A stretch of 64,000 nucleotides of DNA from Escherichia phage vB_EcoM_VR7. Under the pieces are notes generated by a model. It was not told where the DNA came from. It did no database searches and saw only the letters and a program-made list of their open reading frames with translations. Below are positions 1,997 through 37,483 of this stretch, in pieces. How positions within the stretch are numbered: position 1 is the stretch's first letter; every line of letters begins with the position of its first letter. Both the position numbers and the translations under genes were made by a program. The stretch lies in sequence record NC_014792.1. One strand, written 5' to 3'.

Positions 1997-2551
1997 TTAC
2001 CGGTAGCGACCCGGTTTCTTGTTTGGTATTTCAAATTGCGTAGATTTAGTATCTAATTTTTTAACTATGGAACTTATGTCATGAAAGAAAAACCATTCAC
2101 CATTTATATGGTCCTGATTATAAATGGTGTGCATATATTTTTCAAGTTCTACTGCATCCTGGGAATATCTAAATGATACTATTTTAAAACTTTTAAAAGG
2201 TGAAAATGTATTTGCTGCTATAGCTCTAACATCGGGTTCTATACTTCTTCCTATTTTATAATAATTAGGATTTGTAGTGTCTACCATTATGTATACAAAA
2301 GCTTGTCGATAACTTTTTTCTATATCGAATTCATCTTTAAATTTCAATAGATTTAGAGCAGCCGTTCTACAAAATATTCCCCATATCGACGAGCGTTTAG
2401 CTTCGGTCATCGAAAAGAATTTTTTCTTATCTATGATTTTAAGAAAAGCCACCTTTTCAATTAGTTCTTGTGTTATTTCAAAATTACCATGGTATATTAA
2501 TCCAGCTTTTATAGCCAAATTAATTTGGTCCCAGTCTACATCACTTCTCAT
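1997..2551 (-). CDS. T5orf172 / GIY-YIG-superfamily domain protein (184 aa) in the tRNA island; possible homing-endonuclease-like nuclease
   Basis: C-terminal half carries FVYIMV...NYYKIGRS...R...E...NGEWFFF, resembling the GIY-YIG/T5orf172 signature; occupies the position where T4 has segB in its tRNA cluster. Confidence 0.5.
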   Translation of the reverse strand: MRSDVDWDQINLAIKAGLIYHGNFEITQELIEKVAFLKIIDKKKFFSMTEAKRSSIWGIFCRTAALNLLKFKDEFDIEKSYRQAFVYIMVDTTNPNYYKIGRSIEPDVRAIAANTFSPFKSFKIVSFRYSQDAVELEKYMHTIYNQDHINGEWFFFHDISSIVKKLDTKSTQFEIPNKKPGRYR

Positions 2552-2733: not shown

Positions 2734-3153
2734 TTAACTTGACCATCCCCAACCTTCGGAAGGACCATCGTAGTGTACACAAATATCAGGTGAAATATTA
2801 AAATTGGCTTCGTCCGAAGAAAAAACACCCAACTTTTTACCAAACTCACTGAAGCAGAATTGTTCGCCGCCCGGAGCCCAAACATCTTCAAATAAAACAG
2901 TGAATAGCCAGCCAGCAATTAAATCTGCATCAAATTCTGTTACACCTGAACACATTTCATATAACTCGTCATCACAGACTGTAGCCACGATATGGGCCAA
3001 ATGACTTTCAGATTTTAACCAGATGCGAATTAAATTACCATCAAAACAATTGTAGTTAATTTCGGATGGCTGGCAGTTATAAAATACTTCTGTAGCGATT
3101 TCTGGATTTTCCCAAGTTTCGTCGTTAAAATTGATAAGAATAGGAGTAATCAT
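2734..3153 (-). CDS. Hypothetical acidic protein (139 aa)
   Basis: ORF track; GAGGA RBS; D/E-rich with few K/R. Confidence 0.5.
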   Translation of the reverse strand: MITPILINFNDETWENPEIATEVFYNCQPSEINYNCFDGNLIRIWLKSESHLAHIVATVCDDELYEMCSGVTEFDADLIAGWLFTVLFEDVWAPGGEQFCFSEFGKKLGVFSSDEANFNISPDICVHYDGPSEGWGWSS

Positions 3154-3265
3154 ATTTTCCTCATTAGTTGATTATTCTATTATGAAAGGCTCTTTGAGGG
3201 AAGAACCTTTGGTAATAGAGGGTACTTATTAATAATAACACACAACTCTTAAAGCATATTACTTG

Positions 3266-3649
3266 TTAACCTTCATCAACAATAGTGTGGGTGTTGGCAT
3301 TAACAATCTGCCACCAGTCAAAACGGGTTAGAACCATAACATGGTTGTTTTCATTTTCTTTAATAATATCACGCAGTTCATCTTCAGTCGCAGCTTTTGC
3401 AATTAAATCTGCATAACCGCCCCGGGGATAATAGCTATCGCCAGCAAAGAGTAAAAAGTTTGTTTTGATATTCTTGAATTCTTCAAGAGTAATAACCGTT
3501 CCAGATGGTTGTTGAACAATATCTACGTAACTATATCCTAATTTCTGGGCATTATCTACCGCTTCAAGCAGGGTGTCATGTGCCCACCCAATTTGACATT
3601 CTGGTTTGTCAGATGGGTTTGCCTGATAATCCGCATACACTTTATACAT
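3266..3649 (-). CDS. Hypothetical protein (128 aa)
   Basis: ORF track 3266..3697 trimmed to the ATG at 3649 with RBS; start abuts the stop of the upstream small ORF. Confidence 0.45.
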   Translation of the reverse strand: MYKVYADYQANPSDKPECQIGWAHDTLLEAVDNAQKLGYSYVDIVQQPSGTVITLEEFKNIKTNFLLFAGDSYYPRGGYADLIAKAATEDELRDIIKENENNHVMVLTRFDWWQIVNANTHTIVDEG

Positions 3650-3650
3650 T

Positions 3651-3836
3651 TTACTCACCTTTAGACATTTTATCCATAACGAAAGAGATTGAACCAATTA
3701 AGAATGCAACTACTAAAGAGATTATATTCTCAGAAGTTGAAAGCATATTCAACATAAAGCCAGCAAACATGCTAAAACCAAAAGCGGTAACAGCAACAAG
3801 GGCAGTAACATTTCTAATTAATTCGCAACGTTTCAT
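3651..3836 (-). CDS. Hypothetical small membrane protein (61 aa)
   Basis: ORF track; hydrophobic segments; own promoter cassette upstream. Confidence 0.4.
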   Translation of the reverse strand: MKRCELIRNVTALVAVTAFGFSMFAGFMLNMLSTSENIISLVVAFLIGSISFVMDKMSKGE

Positions 3837-3864
3837 TTTATTCTCCTCATTAGTTGATGGGATA

Positions 3865-3895
3865 ATTATACACTATCCCATATCTAAAAGTACAC
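3865..3895 (-). promoter_or_regulatory. T4 early-type promoter with the GGGATA/TATCCC stem-loop
   Basis: Minus strand GTGTAC-N19-TATAAT; same cassette as at 1095-1124. Confidence 0.45.
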
Positions 3896-4129
3896 TTATT
3901 TTTTACGGAAAATTGATTTATACTGTTTAGCCCATTTCTCGATAACTTCTGCTGGACCCTGGATAACAAAATAGTCCCCAAACTCTTCACCGCCGAGCTG
4001 ACCGTAATTATCTAAGGCGTCGCGGAGAGTTCCATAAGGCATTTCGCCCATTTTATCTTTCTTGCCGGTGTAAATGAATTGCACTTTAACATCAGCAGTT
4101 TCATTAATAAATTCTTGATAAGTTTTCAT
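3896..4129 (-). CDS. Internal-protein-like protein with capsid-targeting N-terminus MKTYQEFINE (77 aa)
   Basis: N-terminus MKTYQEFINE matches the T4 internal-protein targeting sequence MKTYQEFIAE (gp21 cleavage after I/L-x-E); body is unique. Confidence 0.7.
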   Translation of the reverse strand: MKTYQEFINETADVKVQFIYTGKKDKMGEMPYGTLRDALDNYGQLGGEEFGDYFVIQGPAEVIEKWAKQYKSIFRKK

Positions 4130-4185
4130 GTTGTCTCCAGTAGTTGATGGGATAATTATACTGCAGTTATCCCATCACGTACACT
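4103..4185. repeat. Direct repeat copy A (~80 bp: promoter/stem-loop, RBS and first codons of an internal-protein gene)
   Basis: Near-identical to 4436..4518 by eye. Confidence 0.8.
4155..4184 (-). promoter_or_regulatory. T4 early-type promoter within the GGGATAA/TTATCCC stem-loop cassette
   Basis: Minus strand GTGTAC-N18-TATAAT; inverted repeat gggataa(4149-4155)/ttatccc(4167-4173). Confidence 0.5.
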
Positions 4186-4462
4186 AAATTTTTGTATATT
4201 GTCCAGCTTTAACTTTTTTCAGTTCACGAGGGCTTACCGCGTAAGTGAATGGAGCATTCCAGGAAGAACTGACTTTGTAACCTTTAGTCAACATCATTGC
4301 TGAAACTTTCTTGTTATCAGGACCGTTTTCGCCTTTAACAAGAAACAACTCAAATGCGCCACCATCAACCGGTTTGGCCTTAACCATCAGATGTCCTTTC
4401 AGGTCTTCCAGCATATCCGGGTGACTAATTGATTCGTTAATAAATTCTTGATAAGTTTTCAT
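4184..4462 (-). CDS. Internal-protein-like protein with capsid-targeting N-terminus MKTYQEFINE (92 aa)
   Basis: Same N-terminal decapeptide; unrelated body. Confidence 0.7.
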   Translation of the reverse strand: MKTYQEFINESISHPDMLEDLKGHLMVKAKPVDGGAFELFLVKGENGPDNKKVSAMMLTKGYKVSSSWNAPFTYAVSPRELKKVKAGQYTKI

Positions 4463-4518
4463 GTTGTCTCCAGTAGTTGATGGGATAATTATACTGCAGT
4501 TATCCCATCGTGTACATT
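4436..4518. repeat. Direct repeat copy B (~80 bp promoter/stem-loop/RBS/first-codons cassette)
   Basis: Near-identical to 4103..4185. Confidence 0.8.
4488..4517 (-). promoter_or_regulatory. T4 early-type promoter within the stem-loop cassette
   Basis: Minus strand -10 TATAAT with -35-like ATGTAC 18 nt upstream. Confidence 0.45.
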
Positions 4519-4816
4519 ACATTTTTGAACCGCGAATCACGCCATAAGCTGCGAAGTCGTCAGTGATGTTCTTAGGGGTGTTTTTACCAGTTTCAATATA
4601 TGCGATGCTGGATTTCTGACCAAATGAGGTAATTTTATTATAGTTAGAGTCAAGGAAAGTATAACCATTTTTACGCAGCTGGTCAAAGTCTTCAGCGTCG
4701 CCTTTACCTTTGAAGTCAACCCATTTGTATGTGTTTTTCTTCTGAAGGCCCAGAGGCCAGGTTTTTGCTTCTGCCAGGTAATTATTTTCTACCAAAAATT
4801 CGTGGAGCGTTTGCAT
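4517..4816 (-). CDS. Internal-protein-like protein with N-terminus MQTLHEFLVE (99 aa)
   Basis: Divergent version of the targeting motif ending in L-x-E; unique body. Confidence 0.6.
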   Translation of the reverse strand: MQTLHEFLVENNYLAEAKTWPLGLQKKNTYKWVDFKGKGDAEDFDQLRKNGYTFLDSNYNKITSFGQKSSIAYIETGKNTPKNITDDFAAYGVIRGSKM

Positions 4817-4824
4817 TTGAAATC

Positions 4825-5097
4825 CTATTTTAGATAAATTGCATATTTTTTATAACCAGCTGTCTCATGGCGGAGACCCTTGTCATTGGCAAAACGCTCA
4901 ATGTTATTAATTTGGTTCTGGTCAAGTTCAGAGATGTCAAACGCGAAAAAGTTGCGTTTGTTACCAATTGTTATATGGTCAGTCAAGTCAATGCTATACA
5001 AGTGATTGATATTGTCAATCATAGCTTTGACTGCTTTACTAATTTTTACTTCTTCATTCAGTTGGGACTCGTTGAAAAGTTCATTAAAAGTTTTCAT
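4825..5097 (-). CDS. Internal-protein-like protein with N-terminus MKTFNELFNE (90 aa)
   Basis: Targeting-like N-terminus; 8-bp spacing to the next gene suggests operon expression. Confidence 0.6.
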   Translation of the reverse strand: MKTFNELFNESQLNEEVKISKAVKAMIDNINHLYSIDLTDHITIGNKRNFFAFDISELDQNQINNIERFANDKGLRHETAGYKKYAIYLK

Positions 5098-5105
5098 AAG
5101 AAACC

Positions 5106-5438
5106 TTATTTATACAGTTTAGCCAGTTCTTTACGTCCGCGAGCAGACATAATGAATTGTTCATCACCAATTTTGAAATAAGCCATACCACCGTCAACAG
5201 CGATGCCAATTTCTTTAGTACCTTCTTTGCCTTTCCACTTGCCACCAGATTTTAGGACAGCTTCAACCGCAGCTTTGGAATATTTGGACGTTTGAAAACG
5301 TTCATTACCAATCTGAAAGAAAACACCATCTGCATTTTTGGATAAACCAAATTTCAGAGAGCCTTCACTATCATCAATTGATTTGGTCTCATTGATGGCG
5401 GATTCGGCTAAAAACTCGTTATAAGTCTTGATGTTCAT
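5106..5438 (-). CDS. Internal-protein-like protein with N-terminus MNIKTYNEFLAE (110 aa)
   Basis: ORF track 5106..5471 trimmed to the ATG at 5438 (GGAG RBS); the extension would overlap the promoter; body has two internal repeats (FFQIGNERF / YFKIGDEQF). Confidence 0.6.
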   Translation of the reverse strand: MNIKTYNEFLAESAINETKSIDDSEGSLKFGLSKNADGVFFQIGNERFQTSKYSKAAVEAVLKSGGKWKGKEGTKEIGIAVDGGMAYFKIGDEQFIMSARGRKELAKLYK

Positions 5439-5469
5439 TTTAACTCCGTTTGTTCGTTGGTGTAGGAAC

Positions 5470-5498
5470 ATAATACTGCACCTACACTCATTTGTACA

Positions 5499-5499
<1 letters not shown>
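5470..5499 (-). promoter_or_regulatory. T4 early-type promoter (-35 GTGTAC, -10 TATTAT) within hairpin GTAGG/CCTAC
   Basis: Minus strand GTGTAC-N18-TATTAT; inverted repeat 5462-5466/5481-5485. Confidence 0.45.
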
Positions 5500-6189
<690 letters not shown>

Positions 6190-6190
<1 letters not shown>

Positions 6191-6867
6191 TATATTACCT
6201 TATTAATTTTATCAAAAAGTTCTTCGAGTGTGCCATCGTTTTTAATAACAATGTCACTAGCTAGTGGTGGAAGTCCAGCTTCCGTAATGTGTGTATCAGT
6301 AGAATGATTTGCTTCATCGCGTTCTACAAAGATTATTGTAGCACCCATCGCCCGAAGCGAATCAAGTTCGTTCTTTTGGCGAACATCTGGGACAACGTAA
6401 TATTTATATCCAGAATAGAGGTTGTCAAGATAATCGCATGCAAAAGTTTTAATCCAAAACATGCTGTCGAACTCTGTACAAACGATATCAGTTCCAAGGG
6501 TCTGCATGAAACGTCTAACTGTCCAGGGCTCAACATTATTTAGTGTGTGAAATTCAATGATTTTACGAACCATATCTGGATTCGGAAGGTCAAGATTATA
6601 TTGTTGTTTCAACCATTCAAGAGCGTCAACCAGAAGAATATGAGCTTCAGTGTTGTTCATTATCAAGGTTTTTTCACGGTCATAACCTTGTCCATCAAAA
6701 TTTTCCAGGGTCAAATTGTGTGGCAGGTCTTGACGAACCCACGCTTTATAAAGCGCTTCTTTAATTGGACCAGCAAGTTGCCACTTTGTTCCGTTTTGAC
6801 TAATAACATAATCAGCGGTCGTATCTTTACCACTGCGTTTTTTACCCACAATCGCAATTAATTTCAT
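6190..6867 (-). CDS. 1: Deoxynucleoside monophosphate kinase (gene 1)
   Basis: P-loop GKKRSGKDT near the N-terminus; 225 aa; synteny with T4 gene 1. Confidence 0.85.
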
Positions 6868-7463
6868 ACGTTTCTCATAGATGGATGCATTGACTTAGAC
6901 CTGATTTCCTGTTGCATTGCTGCATTACTATCAATCTGTGGTCTACCTTCTATTATTATACCATCAATTTCTACAGCAAAAGACTTAAAGTTAAAAGTTG
7001 CTGTTGCATTGATAGCAGGGTCAGAATCTTCTTTATATGAATACTGAATCTCTGACAGGTCGGACGGCCATGCTCCATAGTAATGGATTGACATGACAAT
7101 TTTGTCCTTGTTGTTATCTAAGATATGAAGCGTGACCGCTTCGGGACGACCCTTTGGATGCCATGCTTTTGATTCGTGTGTGATGTAGTTATTAAGCGAG
7201 AGCATCCATTTATAGATATCAAGCCATGCCCTTAGGTCTTTGTCACACAGAAAGTTAACAATCAGCGGGTCGAATTCTATTGTACTACCAGGAAGACTGG
7301 AGCGATTTATACCTTGCGTTCCGCCGGGGACATCCGTCACAGGAATGTGAACCCCTGGGAGGGTAACGTCTTGAACGTTGAGTTTAAAAGTCTGTGTGAG
7401 GTTTGAATCGCTTACCTCTAATATAAAGTTAGTCGTGTTAGTTTGATTATATAAACCTGACAT
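6864..7463 (-). CDS. 3: gp3 tail completion / tail tube terminator protein
   Basis: Size and position between gene 1 and gene 2 as in T4. Confidence 0.75.
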   Translation of the reverse strand: MSGLYNQTNTTNFILEVSDSNLTQTFKLNVQDVTLPGVHIPVTDVPGGTQGINRSSLPGSTIEFDPLIVNFLCDKDLRAWLDIYKWMLSLNNYITHESKAWHPKGRPEAVTLHILDNNKDKIVMSIHYYGAWPSDLSEIQYSYKEDSDPAINATATFNFKSFAVEIDGIIIEGRPQIDSNAAMQQEIRSKSMHPSMRNV

Positions 7464-7475
7464 AGTGCACCTTGT

Positions 7476-7501
7476 TTGCTTAAACCAATCAGTGTTATAA
7501 T
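7476..7501 (+). promoter_or_regulatory. T4 middle-type promoter (MotA box TTGCTTA + 13 nt + TATAAT) on the plus strand, antisense to the HNH gene
   Basis: ttgctta 7476-7482, 13-nt spacer, tataat 7496-7501; inverted copy of the ggtctagaaccattata element at 43173 and 50473. Confidence 0.4.
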
Positions 7502-7547
7502 GGTTCTAGACCTTTTGTCCTTACCAATAACACTGACCGATAATAGA

Positions 7548-8219
7548 TTATTTTATTAATGTGTTAAGTCTTAGCTTAGTCATAAACGGATAACGTTCCA
7601 ACATTGGCTTTACCCAGTATCGAGGATGCAATTCCTTTTTATATGCTAGGACCAACTCTCGAGCTTGCTCGACGGTATCAACTCCGAAGTTTTTACACAT
7701 TTCTTGCCTATCTTTTTCCCACCGGCGCTTTGATAATTCTGCGTTGACTTTCGTAAATGTATCATTCTTTCGGTTGTGTTTTTTGCCCGTTGTTGGGCTG
7801 TAATGTCTTCCTTTAACGAATCCTTCTGGAACGTCTTCCCACGGAAATAATTTTATCGATTTGACACCATTATTAAAATAAACTTTTCCCGTTTGACTTT
7901 TCGAAATGTTGTTGGCATGTTTACGTCTTAACCAACCAAATAATTTATTGTTATGCCGTTTATGATTTTTTGAATTTTGTGCCATTGTTGTTGCGGCAAA
8001 ACTTAACCCAGGATGTGTGGGATATATTTTAACCAGTAATTGATGCGCGACATAATGTTCTTCGGGTGTTAAATTAACCAGATTATCTGGGTCATTGGAA
8101 CCGCCCATACATTTTGGAATGATGTGATGAGATTCTTTATATGAAATCAGGACCCTGTTACGGGCCCTTTCAATTAACGATGAATATATAAACTGATAAT
8201 TCAAAGTGAATTTCTCCAA
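7548..8219 (-). CDS. HNH homing endonuclease (freestanding), inserted between genes 3 and 2
   Basis: HNH core [30 protein letters not shown]; non-ATG (TTG) start with weak RBS; not present between T4 genes 2 and 3. Confidence 0.75.
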
Positions 8220-33734: not shown

Positions 33735-35309
33735 ATGGCAGGTTTTAATACAATACTAAATTTTCTTAAGCCTTGGGCTAAAGAAGATGAACAAGAATAT
33801 AAGCAACAAGAAAAAAATAATTTAGAGTCAATGACCGGGCCGAAGTTTGATGATGGGGCTCGCGAAATTGAGTCACAAGAACAAAACGTCCCGTATAATG
33901 CATTGATGCAACAGATGTTCGGGAGCAACGAACCTGAAGTAAAAAACACCAGGGAATTAATTGACACATACCGCAACCTACTAAATAATTATGAAGTTGA
34001 TAACGCGGTGCAAGAAATTGTGTCTGATGCTATCGTTTTTGAAGATGGTAAAGATGTCGTAGCTCTTAACCTTGATGCTACTGAATTTAGTCAGAAAATT
34101 AAAGACCGAATTCTCGAAGAATTCTCGGAAGTTAATAACCTCCTTAATTTCGAGCGTAAAGGTTCTGACCACTTTAAACGTTGGTATGTGGATTCTCGAA
34201 TTTTCTTCCACAAAATTATCAACCCTTCAAAACTTAAAGAAGGCGTTCAAGAACTTCGTCGCCTTGACCCAAGACAAATCCAGTTCATCCGTGAAATCGT
34301 TACACGCATGGAAAATGGTACGAAAATTGTTGACGGTTACAGAGAATATTTTGTATACGATACAGGTCATGAAAGTTATTGTGCCGATGGTCGTATATAT
34401 GAAGCGGGTACTAAAATAAAAATTCCTCGTGCGGCAATTGTATATGCACATTCCGGATTACTTGATTGTTGTGGTAAGAATATCATCGGATACCTGCAAC
34501 GAGCAATCAAACCTGCAAACCAATTAAAACTATTAGAAGATGCTTTAGTCATTTATCGTATAACTCGTGCGCCAGACCGCCGAGTCTTTTATATCGATAC
34601 TGGGAATATGCCGTCTCGCAAAGCAGCAGCACATATGCAACATATTATGAACACGATGAAAAACCGTGTCGTATATGATGCAACTACGGGTAAAATCAAA
34701 AACCAACAGCATAATATGTCAATGACAGAAGACTATTGGTTGCAACGTCGCGACGGTAAAGCAGTCACCGAAGTTGATACTCTCCCAGGTGCACAAGGCA
34801 TGTCGGATATGGATGATGTTCGCTGGTTTAAGAACAACCTATATCAGGCTCTCAGAATTCCATTATCTCGTATCCCTAATGACCAGAACAGTGGCGTTAT
34901 GTTTGATGCGGGGGCGACAATTACTCGCGATGAATTGAATTTCTCTAAATGGATTAGACAACTACAGAATAAATTTGAAGAAGTTTTCCTCGACCCGCTT
35001 AAAACCAACCTTATCCTGAAAAAAGTTATTTCAGAAGAGGAATGGGACAAGGAACTAAATAATATTAAAGTTACGTTCAACCGTGATAGCTATTTCACCG
35101 AAATGAAAGATGCAGAAATCATGGAACGCAGAATCAATATGCTAACGATGGCTGAACCGTTTATCGGTAAATATATTTCGCATCAAACTGCAATGAAGGA
35201 TTTCCTCCAGATGTCTGATGAAGAAATTAATCAAGAAGCTAAGCAAATTGAATTGGAGTCCAAAGAGGCTCGTTTCCAAAACCCTGAAGAAGAAGAAGAG
35301 GATTTCTAA
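33735..35309 (+). CDS. 20: gp20 portal vertex protein
   Basis: 524 aa; synteny. Confidence 0.92.
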
Positions 35310-35566
35310 TGGATGATTTATTTGAAGCCATTAAATCAAACGACCTCGTAGCCGTTCGCAAATATTTTGCTGAAAACATTGGCCCAGTATGCGGTAGTTT
35401 GATTCAAGAACGTAAGATTGAAATTGCACGTTCCATCATGATTGAAGGCGAAGAGCCTAAAGAAGATGATGAAGACAAGGACGACGACAAAGCAGAAAAG
35501 AAAGACAAAAAAGAATCTGACGACGCTGACGAAGGTGACGACGATGAAGATGAGGACGATGAATAA
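35309..35566 (+). CDS. 67: gp67 prohead core protein (acidic C-terminus)
   Basis: 85 aa with poly-D/E tail; position after portal. Confidence 0.75.
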
Positions 35567-35994
35567 TGTTTATTATCCCTGATGATTACGAATTAACTCT
35601 TGAAAACATCGAAAGTGTTTCCGAAGAAGCTCAGGGACAATTTGATTCATTATCCGAAGCCTTAGAAAAAGACGATATAAATATTATTGTAGAAAACATG
35701 TTTGCAGCCGGTGAATATGAAAAAGCAACGGTTATCGGCGCACTGAATGAAGGTGTTCAGCTTAACGAATTTATCGTTAAACATGTATCGTCTCGCGGTG
35801 AGTTAACCCGCACAAAAGACCGAGCTACTCGTAAGCGTAATGCTTTCCAAACAACTGGTCTTTCTAAAGCTAAACGTCGTCAAATTGCCCGACTGGCTAC
35901 TAAAACGAAAAGAGCAAACCCATCTACGCAAATCAGAGCAGAGCGCAAGCGCAAAAAAGCTCGAGCTAAGCGTAAAGCATTCGGACTTGATTAA
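35566..35994 (+). CDS. 68: gp68 prohead core protein
   Basis: 142 aa; synteny. Confidence 0.75.
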
Positions 35995-36632
35995 TGGAAC
36001 AGAAACCAGAGTTACTAATCGAACACTGGGGTCAACCGGGCGAAATTAAAGATGGTGTACCGATGTTGGAATCTCATGATGGTTCCAGCAGCGGTTTAAA
36101 GCCAGGACTTTATATTGAAGGTATTTTCCTACAAGCTGAAGTTGTTAACCGTAATAAACGACTTTATCCTAAACGTATTTTGGAAAAAGCCGTTGCGGAC
36201 TATATCGCCGAACAGGTTGAAACCAAGCAGTCTCTTGGAGAATTAAACCATCCACCTCGTGCAAACGTTGACCCTATGCAGGCAGCAATTATTATCGAGG
36301 AAATGTGGTGGAAAGGGAATGATGTATATGGCCGTGCGCGTATTATCGAAGGCGACCATGGTCCAGGTGATAAACTTGCTGCGAATATAAGAGCGGGTTG
36401 GATTCCTGGTGTATCTAGTCGTGGGCTCGGTTCCCTGACTAAATCAGCAAAAGGTTATAACATCGTCAATGAAGGTTTTAAATTGACGGTTGGAGTAGAT
36501 GCAGTATGGGGGCCAAGTGCTCCGGACGCTTGGGTCAAACCAAAGCAGATTACAGAATCACAAACGGCGGAAGCCGATACAAGTGCCGACGACGCCTTTA
36601 TGGCTCTCGCAGAGGCTTTAAAGACGTTATAA
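35994..36632 (+). CDS. 21: gp21 prohead core protease
   Basis: 212 aa; GLKPGLYIEGIF...AEVVNRNKRLYPKRILEKAV matches remembered T4 gp21. Confidence 0.92.
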   Translation: MEQKPELLIEHWGQPGEIKDGVPMLESHDGSSSGLKPGLYIEGIFLQAEVVNRNKRLYPKRILEKAVADYIAEQVETKQSLGELNHPPRANVDPMQAAIIIEEMWWKGNDVYGRARIIEGDHGPGDKLAANIRAGWIPGVSSRGLGSLTKSAKGYNIVNEGFKLTVGVDAVWGPSAPDAWVKPKQITESQTAEADTSADDAFMALAEALKTL

Positions 36633-36664: not shown

Positions 36665-37483
36665 ATGCTTAAAGAACAACTCATTTCTGAAGCTCAAAAC
36701 ATCGATGCTTCCGTTGCTCTCGATAGTATTTTCGAATCAGTTAATTTGTCCCCGGAAGCGAAAGCTACCTTCGGCACTGTATTCGAAGCTACCGTCAAGC
36801 AACACGCCATCAAACTGGCAGAATCTCACATTCACGCCATCGCTGAAAAAGCTGAAGAAGAAGTCGAAAAGAATAAAGAAGAATCCGACGAAAAAGCAGA
36901 GAAAAAACTGAAAGAATCTGCAGCTAAATTCCTGGACCACGTTGCTAAAGAATGGCTTGCTGAAAACAAACTGGCTGTCGACCGTGGCATTAAAGCTGAC
37001 CTGTTCGAATCCATGTTTACCGGCATGAAAGAACTGTTCGTTGAGCACAACGTTGTTGTTCCAGAAGAATCTGTTGATGTTGTTGCAGAAATGCAGGAAG
37101 AACTGGCTGAACAGAAAGAAGAAACCGCTAGTCTATTCGAAGAAGTTTCTAAGCGTGATGCTTATATCAATTATGTCCAACGTGAAGTTGCGTTGACTGA
37201 AGCGACCAAAGACCTGACCGAATCTCAGAAAGAAAAAGTTGGTTCTCTGGTAGAAGGTATGGATTATTCCGATGCGTTCGGTACCAAAATTGGCGCTATC
37301 GTTGAAATGGTTAAAGGTCAGGTAGACACCACCGAAAAACCTATCACCGAAGCAGCTATAAATAATTCTGTAGACGATGCTGCGGCACTGAATTACATTT
37401 CAGAAGCAGTTGAAGAAAAAGGCGCCAAGCCTACCCTGTCCTTCGCGGACTTGTCTGCTCTCGCAGCATCACGAATTTCTTAA
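36665..37483 (+). CDS. 22: gp22 prohead scaffold core protein
   Basis: 272 aa, E/K-rich; synteny. Confidence 0.85.
   Translation: MLKEQLISEAQNIDASVALDSIFESVNLSPEAKATFGTVFEATVKQHAIKLAESHIHAIAEKAEEEVEKNKEESDEKAEKKLKESAAKFLDHVAKEWLAENKLAVDRGIKADLFESMFTGMKELFVEHNVVVPEESVDVVAEMQEELAEQKEETASLFEEVSKRDAYINYVQREVALTEATKDLTESQKEKVGSLVEGMDYSDAFGTKIGAIVEMVKGQVDTTEKPITEAAINNSVDDAAALNYISEAVEEKGAKPTLSFADLSALAASRIS

Follow-up and report, generated by a model that had tools for sequence, protein, structure and literature searches.

The internal protein (Ip) loci of T-even phages are reportedly polymorphic: Repoila, Tetart, Bouet and Krisch are said to have described in EMBO J in 1994 a series of such genes (Ip4 to Ip10) that share a conserved leader and vary in the number, order and identity of their open reading frames (ORFs). 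According to reports of that work, an element of about 70 bp flanks each Ip ORF; in it, an early promoter is combined with an overlapping inverted repeat. Here we describe an instance of these polymorphic Ip genes, a cassette of five successive ORFs (genes A to E) on the minus strand of a 64,000-nucleotide stretch of the genome of Escherichia phage vB_EcoM_VR7 (NC_014792.1), a member of Gaprivervirus (Straboviridae, Tevenvirinae); this whole stretch is referred to as the window. Two of the five genes, A and D, carry the names Ip6 and Ip9 in the nearest GenBank record.

In T4, the first 10 residues of IPIII are enough for packaging (PMC9026906). Within this capsid-targeting sequence (CTS), positions 4 and 7 govern targeting (Tyr4 and Phe7 in IPIII; Mullaney and Black 1996, per PMC9026906) and positions 8 and 10 govern processing, and the prohead protease gp21 cleaves after L/I-x-E (PMC9026906). 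The leader MKTYQEFIAE, which the original prediction for this locus had ascribed to all three T4 internal proteins, is indeed found in IPII and IPIII but not in IPI, which starts with MKTFKEFTST and loses 19 residues, the solved structure (PDB 2JUB) comprising IPI residues 20-95. Each of the three (Ip1, Ip2 and Ip3) inhibits a different GmrSD type IV restriction enzyme (Silas 2025, PMC12373910), IPI/IPI* acting on GmrSD from E. coli CT596 and IPII and IPIII on GmrSD-ECOR21/BrxU and GmrSD-ECOR17 (PMC12373910), and it has been proposed that all genes of both Ip loci target GmrSD variants (Silas 2025, PMC12373910).

Two further groups of systems are relevant for comparison. Promoter-early stem-loop (PeSL) cassettes combine a sigma70-like promoter with a stem-loop over the -10 box and flank ORFs that are polymorphic by insertion and deletion (Arbiol 2010, PMC2839356; Comeau 2014, PMC4122927). 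T4 Alt, P1 DarA/DarB and the ejection proteins of the phiKZ and SPN3US type are pre-loaded into the head, where the prohead protease often cleaves them behind a Glu, and reach the host along with the DNA (PMC9026906). A likeness of A to E to this second group is predicted, but its members have other targeting signals, are much larger and do not reside in exchangeable mini-cassettes. A homologue of alt is annotated in the closely related Escherichia phage vB_EcoM_VR20 (KP007360.1), and its position maps into the window.

Five leader-bearing genes at the ipI locus

The gene order in T4 is trna.4 - ipI - 57B - 57A - 1 - 3 - 2, and that in the window is trna.4 - A/B/C/D/E - 57B - 57A - 1 - 3. The conserved downstream border of the locus is the trna.4 homologue (3651-3836, minus strand), which encodes a 61-aa membrane protein, and its conserved upstream border is 57B/Acb1 (5499-5954, minus strand), an anti-CBASS phosphodiesterase (Pfam PF23474, E 1.2e-59) at the position of T4 57B. 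Since the order from trna.4 to 57B matches that of T4, the cassette represents the classical ipI locus. We consider it likely that it is an ipI-equivalent locus which has become hyperplastic in Gaprivervirus, with five internal-protein genes where T4 has one, and that the products are packed into the head, injected and directed against host defence. The Acb1-like neighbour had been recognised correctly in the original prediction, but a special association of the cassette with it does not hold, as the adjacency is ancestral synteny shared with T4.

Genes A (3896-4129, 77 aa) and B (4184-4462, 92 aa) both start with the leader MKTYQEFINE, gene C (4517-4816, 99 aa) with MQTLHEFLVE, gene D (4825-5097, 90 aa) with MKTFNELFNE and gene E (5106-5438, 110 aa) with MNIKTYNEFLAE (MN-IKTYNEFLAE), so that each of the five minus-strand ORFs carries a CTS of the T4 type. 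A six-frame scan of the 64-kb window with a permissive CTS regular expression matched A to E and nothing else, and no match arose in 50 shuffled versions of the window. Past the leader, BLASTP with sensitive settings in a nine-sequence database detected no pairwise similarity among the bodies of A to E, nor between any of them and T4 IPI, IPII or IPIII (best E about 0.1), and no paralogues of the five bodies were found elsewhere in the window. The claim of five consecutive ORFs that share a T4-type leader and then become unrelated is thus confirmed by the ORFs, the six-frame scan and the BLASTP comparison.

The gene set had been delimited as 3896-5471. Its composition stands, but the end at 5471 does not: the ATG at this position is the longest-ORF start of E (121 aa) and lies inside the hairpin and -10 region of the element upstream of the gene. 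E more likely starts at the ATG at 5438, because GGAG precedes this codon and the annotation of VR20 starts there. With this start, E begins with MN-IKTY, compared with MKTY in all other members of the family; the ancestral ATG is now ATC, and the new ATG lies two codons upstream.

In the PHROGs database, A (Ip6 family) belongs to phrog_8111, 'internal virion protein' (E 2.5e-51), C (VR7_gp154 family) to phrog_2667, 'internal head protein' (E 2.5e-20), and D (Ip9 family) to phrog_7673 (E 3.3e-56), labelled as an internal head/virion protein. B (VR7_gp153 family; phrog_15565, E 7.8e-47) and E (VR7_gp156 family; phrog_3966, E 1.2e-33) fall into families labelled 'unknown function', a difference from the polymorphic Ip genes described before. 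To judge from their leaders, B and E are CTS-bearing families that the databases consulted here do not list as internal proteins. In phage EAWsc9 (PQ341120.1; locus L002), the homologues of C (2394-2693) and E (2983-3315) are named 'homing endonuclease' and 'profilin', names without Pfam or PHROG support that are likely annotation artefacts.

The leaders of A and B agree with the T4 CTS at every point, that is at the targeting positions, the processing positions and the L/I-x-E motif, and differ from that of IPII and IPIII only as MKTYQEFINE from MKTYQEFIAE. At positions 4 and 7, Tyr and Phe are found in A, B and E (the leader of E being displaced by two residues), while C has Leu4 (Phe4 in the related phage VR25) and D has Phe4 and Leu7. 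The expected gp21 site lies within the first 17 residues in all five proteins, with L/I-x-E at residues 10-17: INE10 in A and B, LVE10 and LAE16 in C, LNE15 in D, and LAE12 and INE17 in E. In D, FNE10 is non-canonical (Leu7, Phe8), so that Glu10 stands outside a canonical site, and LNE15 is canonical. The predicted cut after INE10 in A would leave a mature body of 67 aa and that after LNE15 in D one of about 75 aa. In families C and D the conservation among orthologues starts directly after the second site, and LAE16 of C adjoins the body sequence KTWPLGL. C orthologues have a canonical MKTYQEF leader; all detectable homologues of C and E are leader-bearing, including 11 of 11 homologous clusters of E with an MKTY leader. 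Within the bodies the only L/I-x-E site is ISE57 in D. We had considered a depletion of such sites as protease avoidance and dropped the idea, as one observed site against about four expected is not significant.

The machinery that would act on these leaders is encoded in the same window. The gp21 prohead protease (35994-36632, plus strand; Pfam Peptidase_S77, E 2.4e-102), the predicted leader-removing enzyme, has beside it the core proteins gp67 (35309-35566; Pfam GP67, E 1.4e-20), gp68 (ORF at 35566-35994) and gp22 (ORF at 36665-37483). The gp23 ORF, also in the window, retains the site LTE/AEIGGDHGY.

From these features, and by analogy with T4, we infer the packaging, processing, injection and anti-defence activity of A to E. 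The CTS of each product would bind the gp22-based scaffolding core, so that the protein is built into the prohead. The protease gp21 would then remove the leaders, after Glu10 in A and B, after Glu10 or Glu16 in C, after Glu15 in D and after Glu12 or Glu17 in E. Mature bodies of 67-98 aa would remain in the DNA-filled head and enter the host with the genome, and being injected they would be present before any phage gene is expressed. Each body would most likely act on a single host defence protein as its specific, stoichiometric inhibitor, by analogy with T4 Ip1, Ip2 and Ip3, and recombination between the PeSL elements and the conserved leader codons would add, delete and swap payloads among related phages. 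A diversified, injected anti-defence arsenal, as put forward in the original prediction, is thus supported in silico and is also the published view of the locus (PMC3012670, PMC12373910).

T4 IPI occupies the same slot from trna.4 to 57B and resembles A to E in its N-terminal propeptide ending in L/I-x-E, its small basic mature protein and its early promoter with an overlapping hairpin; it differs in that it is one gene rather than five and in that the bodies of A to E have no sequence similarity to it. With IPII and IPIII the five share mutually unrelated bodies and a working model of one inhibitor per defence variant, whereas the locus differs (the ipII/ipIII equivalent lies outside the window) and sequence similarity between the bodies is again lacking.

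PeSL-type elements and the turnover of modules

Four PeSL-type elements, all on the minus strand, divide the cassette. The element upstream of E (5439-5498) contains GTGTAC, a hairpin GTGTAGG/CCTACAC around TATTAT, and GGAG, its stem sequence differing from those of the others. That upstream of B (4463-4516) contains ATGTAC and TATAAT with a hairpin identical to the one upstream of A, where the element (4130-4183) comprises GTGTAC, the hairpin TGATGGGATAA/TTATCCCATCA around TATAAT, GGAG and ATG. The fourth element (3837-3895), between A and trna.4, has GTGTAC and the hairpin ATGGGATA/TATCCCAT around TATAAT and closes the cassette. The shared design thus consists of an upstream stop codon, [G/A]TGTAC as a -35-like box, a 7-11-bp hairpin around a TATAAT or TATTAT -10 box, a Shine-Dalgarno sequence and ATG. 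The pattern [G/A]TGTAC-N-TAYWAT with a stem enclosing the -10 box occurs four times in 64 kb, each time within the cassette. All four elements fold as hairpins (z -2.3 to -3.4), that upstream of A with -18.1 kcal/mol (z -3.4), and a promoter scan of the element upstream of B gave TGTACA-17-TATAAT (10/12).

These elements agree with the PeSL definition, in which the stem-loop is likewise described as 'overlapping the -10 box' (PMC2839356). Elements of this design also precede ipI and trna.4 in T4, where their stems differ in sequence; what is conserved in the PeSL is therefore its structure rather than its sequence. As in the published PeSL cassettes, the elements flank indel-polymorphic ORFs and a crossover maps inside a repeat; in contrast to them, the tract of homology extends here about 30 nt into the coding sequence, over the leader codons (a 95-nt repeat, see below), and the promoter and terminator roles are predicted.

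On this layout the five genes form three PeSL-bounded modules, [E-D-C], [B] and [A]. The E-D and D-C gaps are 8 nt each, and no separate promoter lies within [E-D-C]. The core of a T4 late promoter, TATAAATA, is found at 5107-5114 (minus strand). It is made up by the final codons of E and precedes the start codon of D by 10 nt. It could serve D and C as a late promoter, and the call is a weak one, because five such octamers on the minus strand of 64 kb are about what chance would give.

The modules differ in how far their leader DNA has diverged. In A and B, 29 of 30 leader nucleotides are identical, compared with only 18-23 of 30 among C, D and E (leader codons at 4787-4816, 5068-5097 and 5403-5438) and between these and A or B. 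A direct repeat of 95 nt (95% identical), which comprises the PeSL and the first 32 coding nucleotides, flanks gene B, the element upstream of A being part of the repeat (D1). The leaders of C, D and E may have diverged under selection against recombination between leaders in tandem, and the data would fit a scheme in which repeat identity drives indels and divergence stabilises the co-transcribed trio E-D-C, although this goes by inference only.

Comparison of the locus across related T4-like genomes bears out its mobility. The cassette region is 98.7% identical to that of VR20, which has the same five genes between its trna.4 homologue and gp57B, with A annotated as ip6, D as ip9 and B, C and E as 'hypothetical'. 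VR25 is colinear with the window save for an exact 333-nt deletion of B, and at its C/A junction the C/B and B/A junctions of the window are joined into a chimera, with the crossover inside the 95-nt repeat. In VR26, an unrelated 80-aa protein, Ip5 (MKTYQTFMTE), replaces C in the same slot. Among 29 loci (28 IMG/VR loci anchored on 57B, and the window) the slot holds between none and five CTS genes; 17 loci have a single gene, and five are found only in the window and in VR20, which makes this gene number the maximum of the sample. The leader-bearing proteins of the 29 loci represent at least 14 unrelated body families beyond the three of T4.

When the bodies were searched by tblastn against 50,697 phage records, A was found in 229, D in 197, C in 192 (39 of them full-length, the others about 40% identical), E in 54 and B in 16, all of the last at least 95% identical and of the Gaprivervirus type. 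Body B also forms a single cluster in a library of 5.8 billion proteins, and by these searches it is a lineage-restricted near-ORFan. Three giant repeat proteins that an exhaustive HMMER search of 1.84 billion representatives offered as homologues of B were rejected as repeat-inflated artefacts, with 4-10 weak stretches of similarity each. In VR20, the C body matches two places in the genome, and no C paralogue exists inside the window; the second copy, outside the region corresponding to the window, is probably an Ip paralogue in a second locus of the ipII/ipIII type.

Payload folds and relatives of the Ip9 body

That no payload function could be read from the sequence had been anticipated in the original prediction, and the searches were uninformative in this respect. 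The five proteins gave only sub-threshold noise against Pfam and no matches in NCBIfam, and sequence and profile searches of the PDB with the payloads returned no matches. Structure models were obtained with single-sequence AlphaFold2 (AF2). The model of D is acceptable (pLDDT 78.6) and shows a long N-terminal helix followed by a beta-beta-alpha-beta-beta arrangement; its best hit in a Foldseek search of the PDB had an E-value of 0.11, and its matches in BFVD were to uncharacterised proteins only. The model of E is too poor for a fold search (pLDDT 48.5) and shows, at low confidence, a duplicated beta-beta-beta-alpha unit. This pattern agrees with an internal repeat in the E body, whose two halves align with an E-value of 6e-5. 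Functions of the payloads could not be deduced from the sequence or fold searches.

The body of D (Ip9) extends beyond T4-like phages. Homologues with 50-58% identity occur in about a dozen Kagunavirus siphophages (Guernseyvirinae) with 44-kb genomes, including Bas70 of the BASEL collection. In Escherichia phage vB_EcoS_UTEC10 (PP291582.1; 2504-2722 of locus L032) the homologue is a 72-aa protein without a CTS and with in-frame stops upstream, and its gene is the first in a cluster of small ORFs of unknown function that is oriented divergently to the replication genes. The alignment of this protein with Ip9 begins at column 19, three residues past the predicted LNE15 cut, and its match to phrog_7673 covers only positions 20-90. 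An Ip9-like domain also forms the C-terminal part (residues 584-642) of the 660-aa gp077 (5883-7865 of locus L035) of Salmonella phage SKML-39, an Agtrevirus (Ackermannviridae); this match is weaker than those in Kagunavirus but significant (tblastn E 7e-5, PHROG E 1.7e-8). The N-terminus of gp077, MATPSFLNFLEESKQLDEA, looks like a targeting leader with an L-x-E site next to it. In a plasmid database the Ip9 body had one match; this record, of 44 kb and classed as non-mobilisable, probably represents a Kagunavirus genome.

The leaderless and fused relatives indicate that the body of mature Ip9 is a module in its own right and that the leader is an add-on. A possible, if somewhat doubtful, extension is that this body is a portable anti-host module which unrelated phages of enterobacteria employ with three modes of delivery, leader-tagged and pre-loaded in the capsid in T4-like phages, free-standing in Kagunavirus and as a C-terminal domain in Agtrevirus. 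If true, the CTS would be a graftable delivery tag that turns ordinary cytoplasmic counter-defence proteins into injected ones, and at least Ip9 would hit a target other than a modification-dependent nuclease of the GmrSD type. Kagunavirus phages are highly sensitive to restriction-modification (R-M) systems according to the BASEL work (PMC11990801). This suggests that their DNA is not heavily modified, and it also argues against a modification-dependent nuclease as the sole possible target of the Ip9 body.

Alternative readings and implications

Several points weigh against the view that A to E are head-packed, injected anti-defence proteins. The PeSL promoters are of the early type and prohead assembly is late, the sole late-promoter core in the cassette being the chance-level octamer upstream of D. 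Three leaders deviate from the CTS as tested, by Leu4 in C, by Leu7 and Phe8 in D and by two additional N-terminal residues in E, and all three are more diverged from the canonical MKTYQEFIxE than the bodies are from their orthologues; that of D retains 5 of 10 canonical residues, compared with 79-87% overall identity to its leader-bearing orthologues. None of the payloads resembles IPI* (PDB 2JUB) or any solved structure. Ip4 to Ip10 showed no reproducible inhibition when assayed against 15 GmrSD groups (PMC12373910), Ip6 and Ip9 being likened here to A and D by name only. T4 IPIII also contributes to head assembly (PMC9026906), so that some Ips may do more than counter host defence. Our literature search for virion proteomics or N-terminal mapping of VR7, VR20 or other Gaprivervirus phages found nothing usable, and a time-resolved omics paper on T4 does not mention the ip genes.

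The negative assays with Ip4 to Ip10 also bear on the nature of the targets. Tentatively, the payloads could be injected anti-defence proteins of which some are aimed at something other than modification-dependent GmrSD nucleases. The leaderless Ip9 bodies of Kagunavirus would fit this idea, the R-M sensitivity of these phages suggesting, though not showing, DNA without protective modification (PMC11990801), and so would the Ip9-like domain of the 660-aa Agtrevirus protein. Known base-modification enzymes were not identified in Gaprivervirus; the same survey of Tevenvirinae lists homologues of Alc, DenB, DenA and dCTPase in this group, which suggests an unidentified modification (PMC8056088). 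On the other hand, every Ip with a known target, three in all, hits a GmrSD enzyme (PMC12373910), the diversity of GmrSD is vast and only sampled, and enzymes of the BrxU type have broad substrate ranges (PMC13390438). The case for other targets moreover depends on the presumed modification status of both Kagunavirus and Gaprivervirus DNA.

The diverged leaders invite a different explanation, according to which only A and B, with their canonical leaders, are still packaged, the leaders of C, D and E being in decay and their products now cytoplasmic early proteins or on the way to being lost. MQTLHEFLVE in C and MKTFNELFNE in D, compared with MKTYQEFI(A/T)E in their orthologues, could be taken as signs of such decay, as could the loss of the original ATG of E (now ATC, with the start two codons upstream), the early type of every promoter found and the D body that works stand-alone in Kagunavirus. 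We consider this unlikely, since C, D and E retain Thr3, Glu6, the equivalent of Glu10, aromatic or hydrophobic residues at positions 4 and 7 and a canonical L/I-x-E within 17 residues, and since their leader-bearing forms are 95-100% conserved across dozens of Gaprivervirus records; the leader of T4 IPI (MKTFKEFTST) is divergent too, yet this protein is packaged and processed.

Very improbable, finally, is a mainly structural or physical role of packaged A to E, in which they would assist the assembly of the head and the ejection of the DNA as basic, DNA-associated core proteins or by neutralising charge: the bodies are small and mostly basic (pI 7.0-9.6), mutation of IPIII in T4 slows head assembly and reduces the burst size (PMC9026906) and about 1000 IP molecules are embedded in T4 DNA (PMC3012670), but such a role leaves unexplained both the presence/absence and replacement polymorphism among near-identical phages and the occupation of a single slot by at least 14 body families without relation to one another, the T4 IPs are dispensable on laboratory hosts (PMC9026906), and all three now have defence targets (PMC12373910).

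Two other ORFs in the window differ between the phages compared. An ORF for an HNH endonuclease (223 aa, 7548-8219, minus strand; Pfam HNH at threshold) lies between genes 3 and 2 and is probably a free-standing homing endonuclease insertion, as VR20 has no ORF at this position. A MUG113/T5orf172 (GIY-YIG-like) ORF (184 aa, 1997-2551, minus strand) abuts tRNA-Arg(tct) and tRNA-Met/Ile2(cat) at 2571-2647 and 2652-2726; it recalls segB, which in T4 lies within the tRNA cluster, and VR20 has a different, shorter ORF there.

The reading of the cassette as an ipI-equivalent set of injected anti-defence proteins changes nothing conceptually: the locus type (since 1994), the leader, the flanking recombination elements and the anti-restriction logic are already established. 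What is added to this locus type is the three-module PeSL anatomy, the exact indel of B, the highest gene number of the sample, the assignment of B and E to leader-bearing families, and the leaderless and fused relatives of Ip9. The cassette offers five candidate injected inhibitors, of which B and E come from families not recognised as internal proteins. D and the leaderless Ip9 homologue of Kagunavirus would make a natural pair for comparison, as the body that they share is predicted to be capsid-delivered in one and not in the other. This pair could address why some counter-defence proteins must be pre-loaded, and Bas70 makes one side of it available in the BASEL collection. For phage therapy, the content of the cassette is a plausible determinant of host range at the level of strains.

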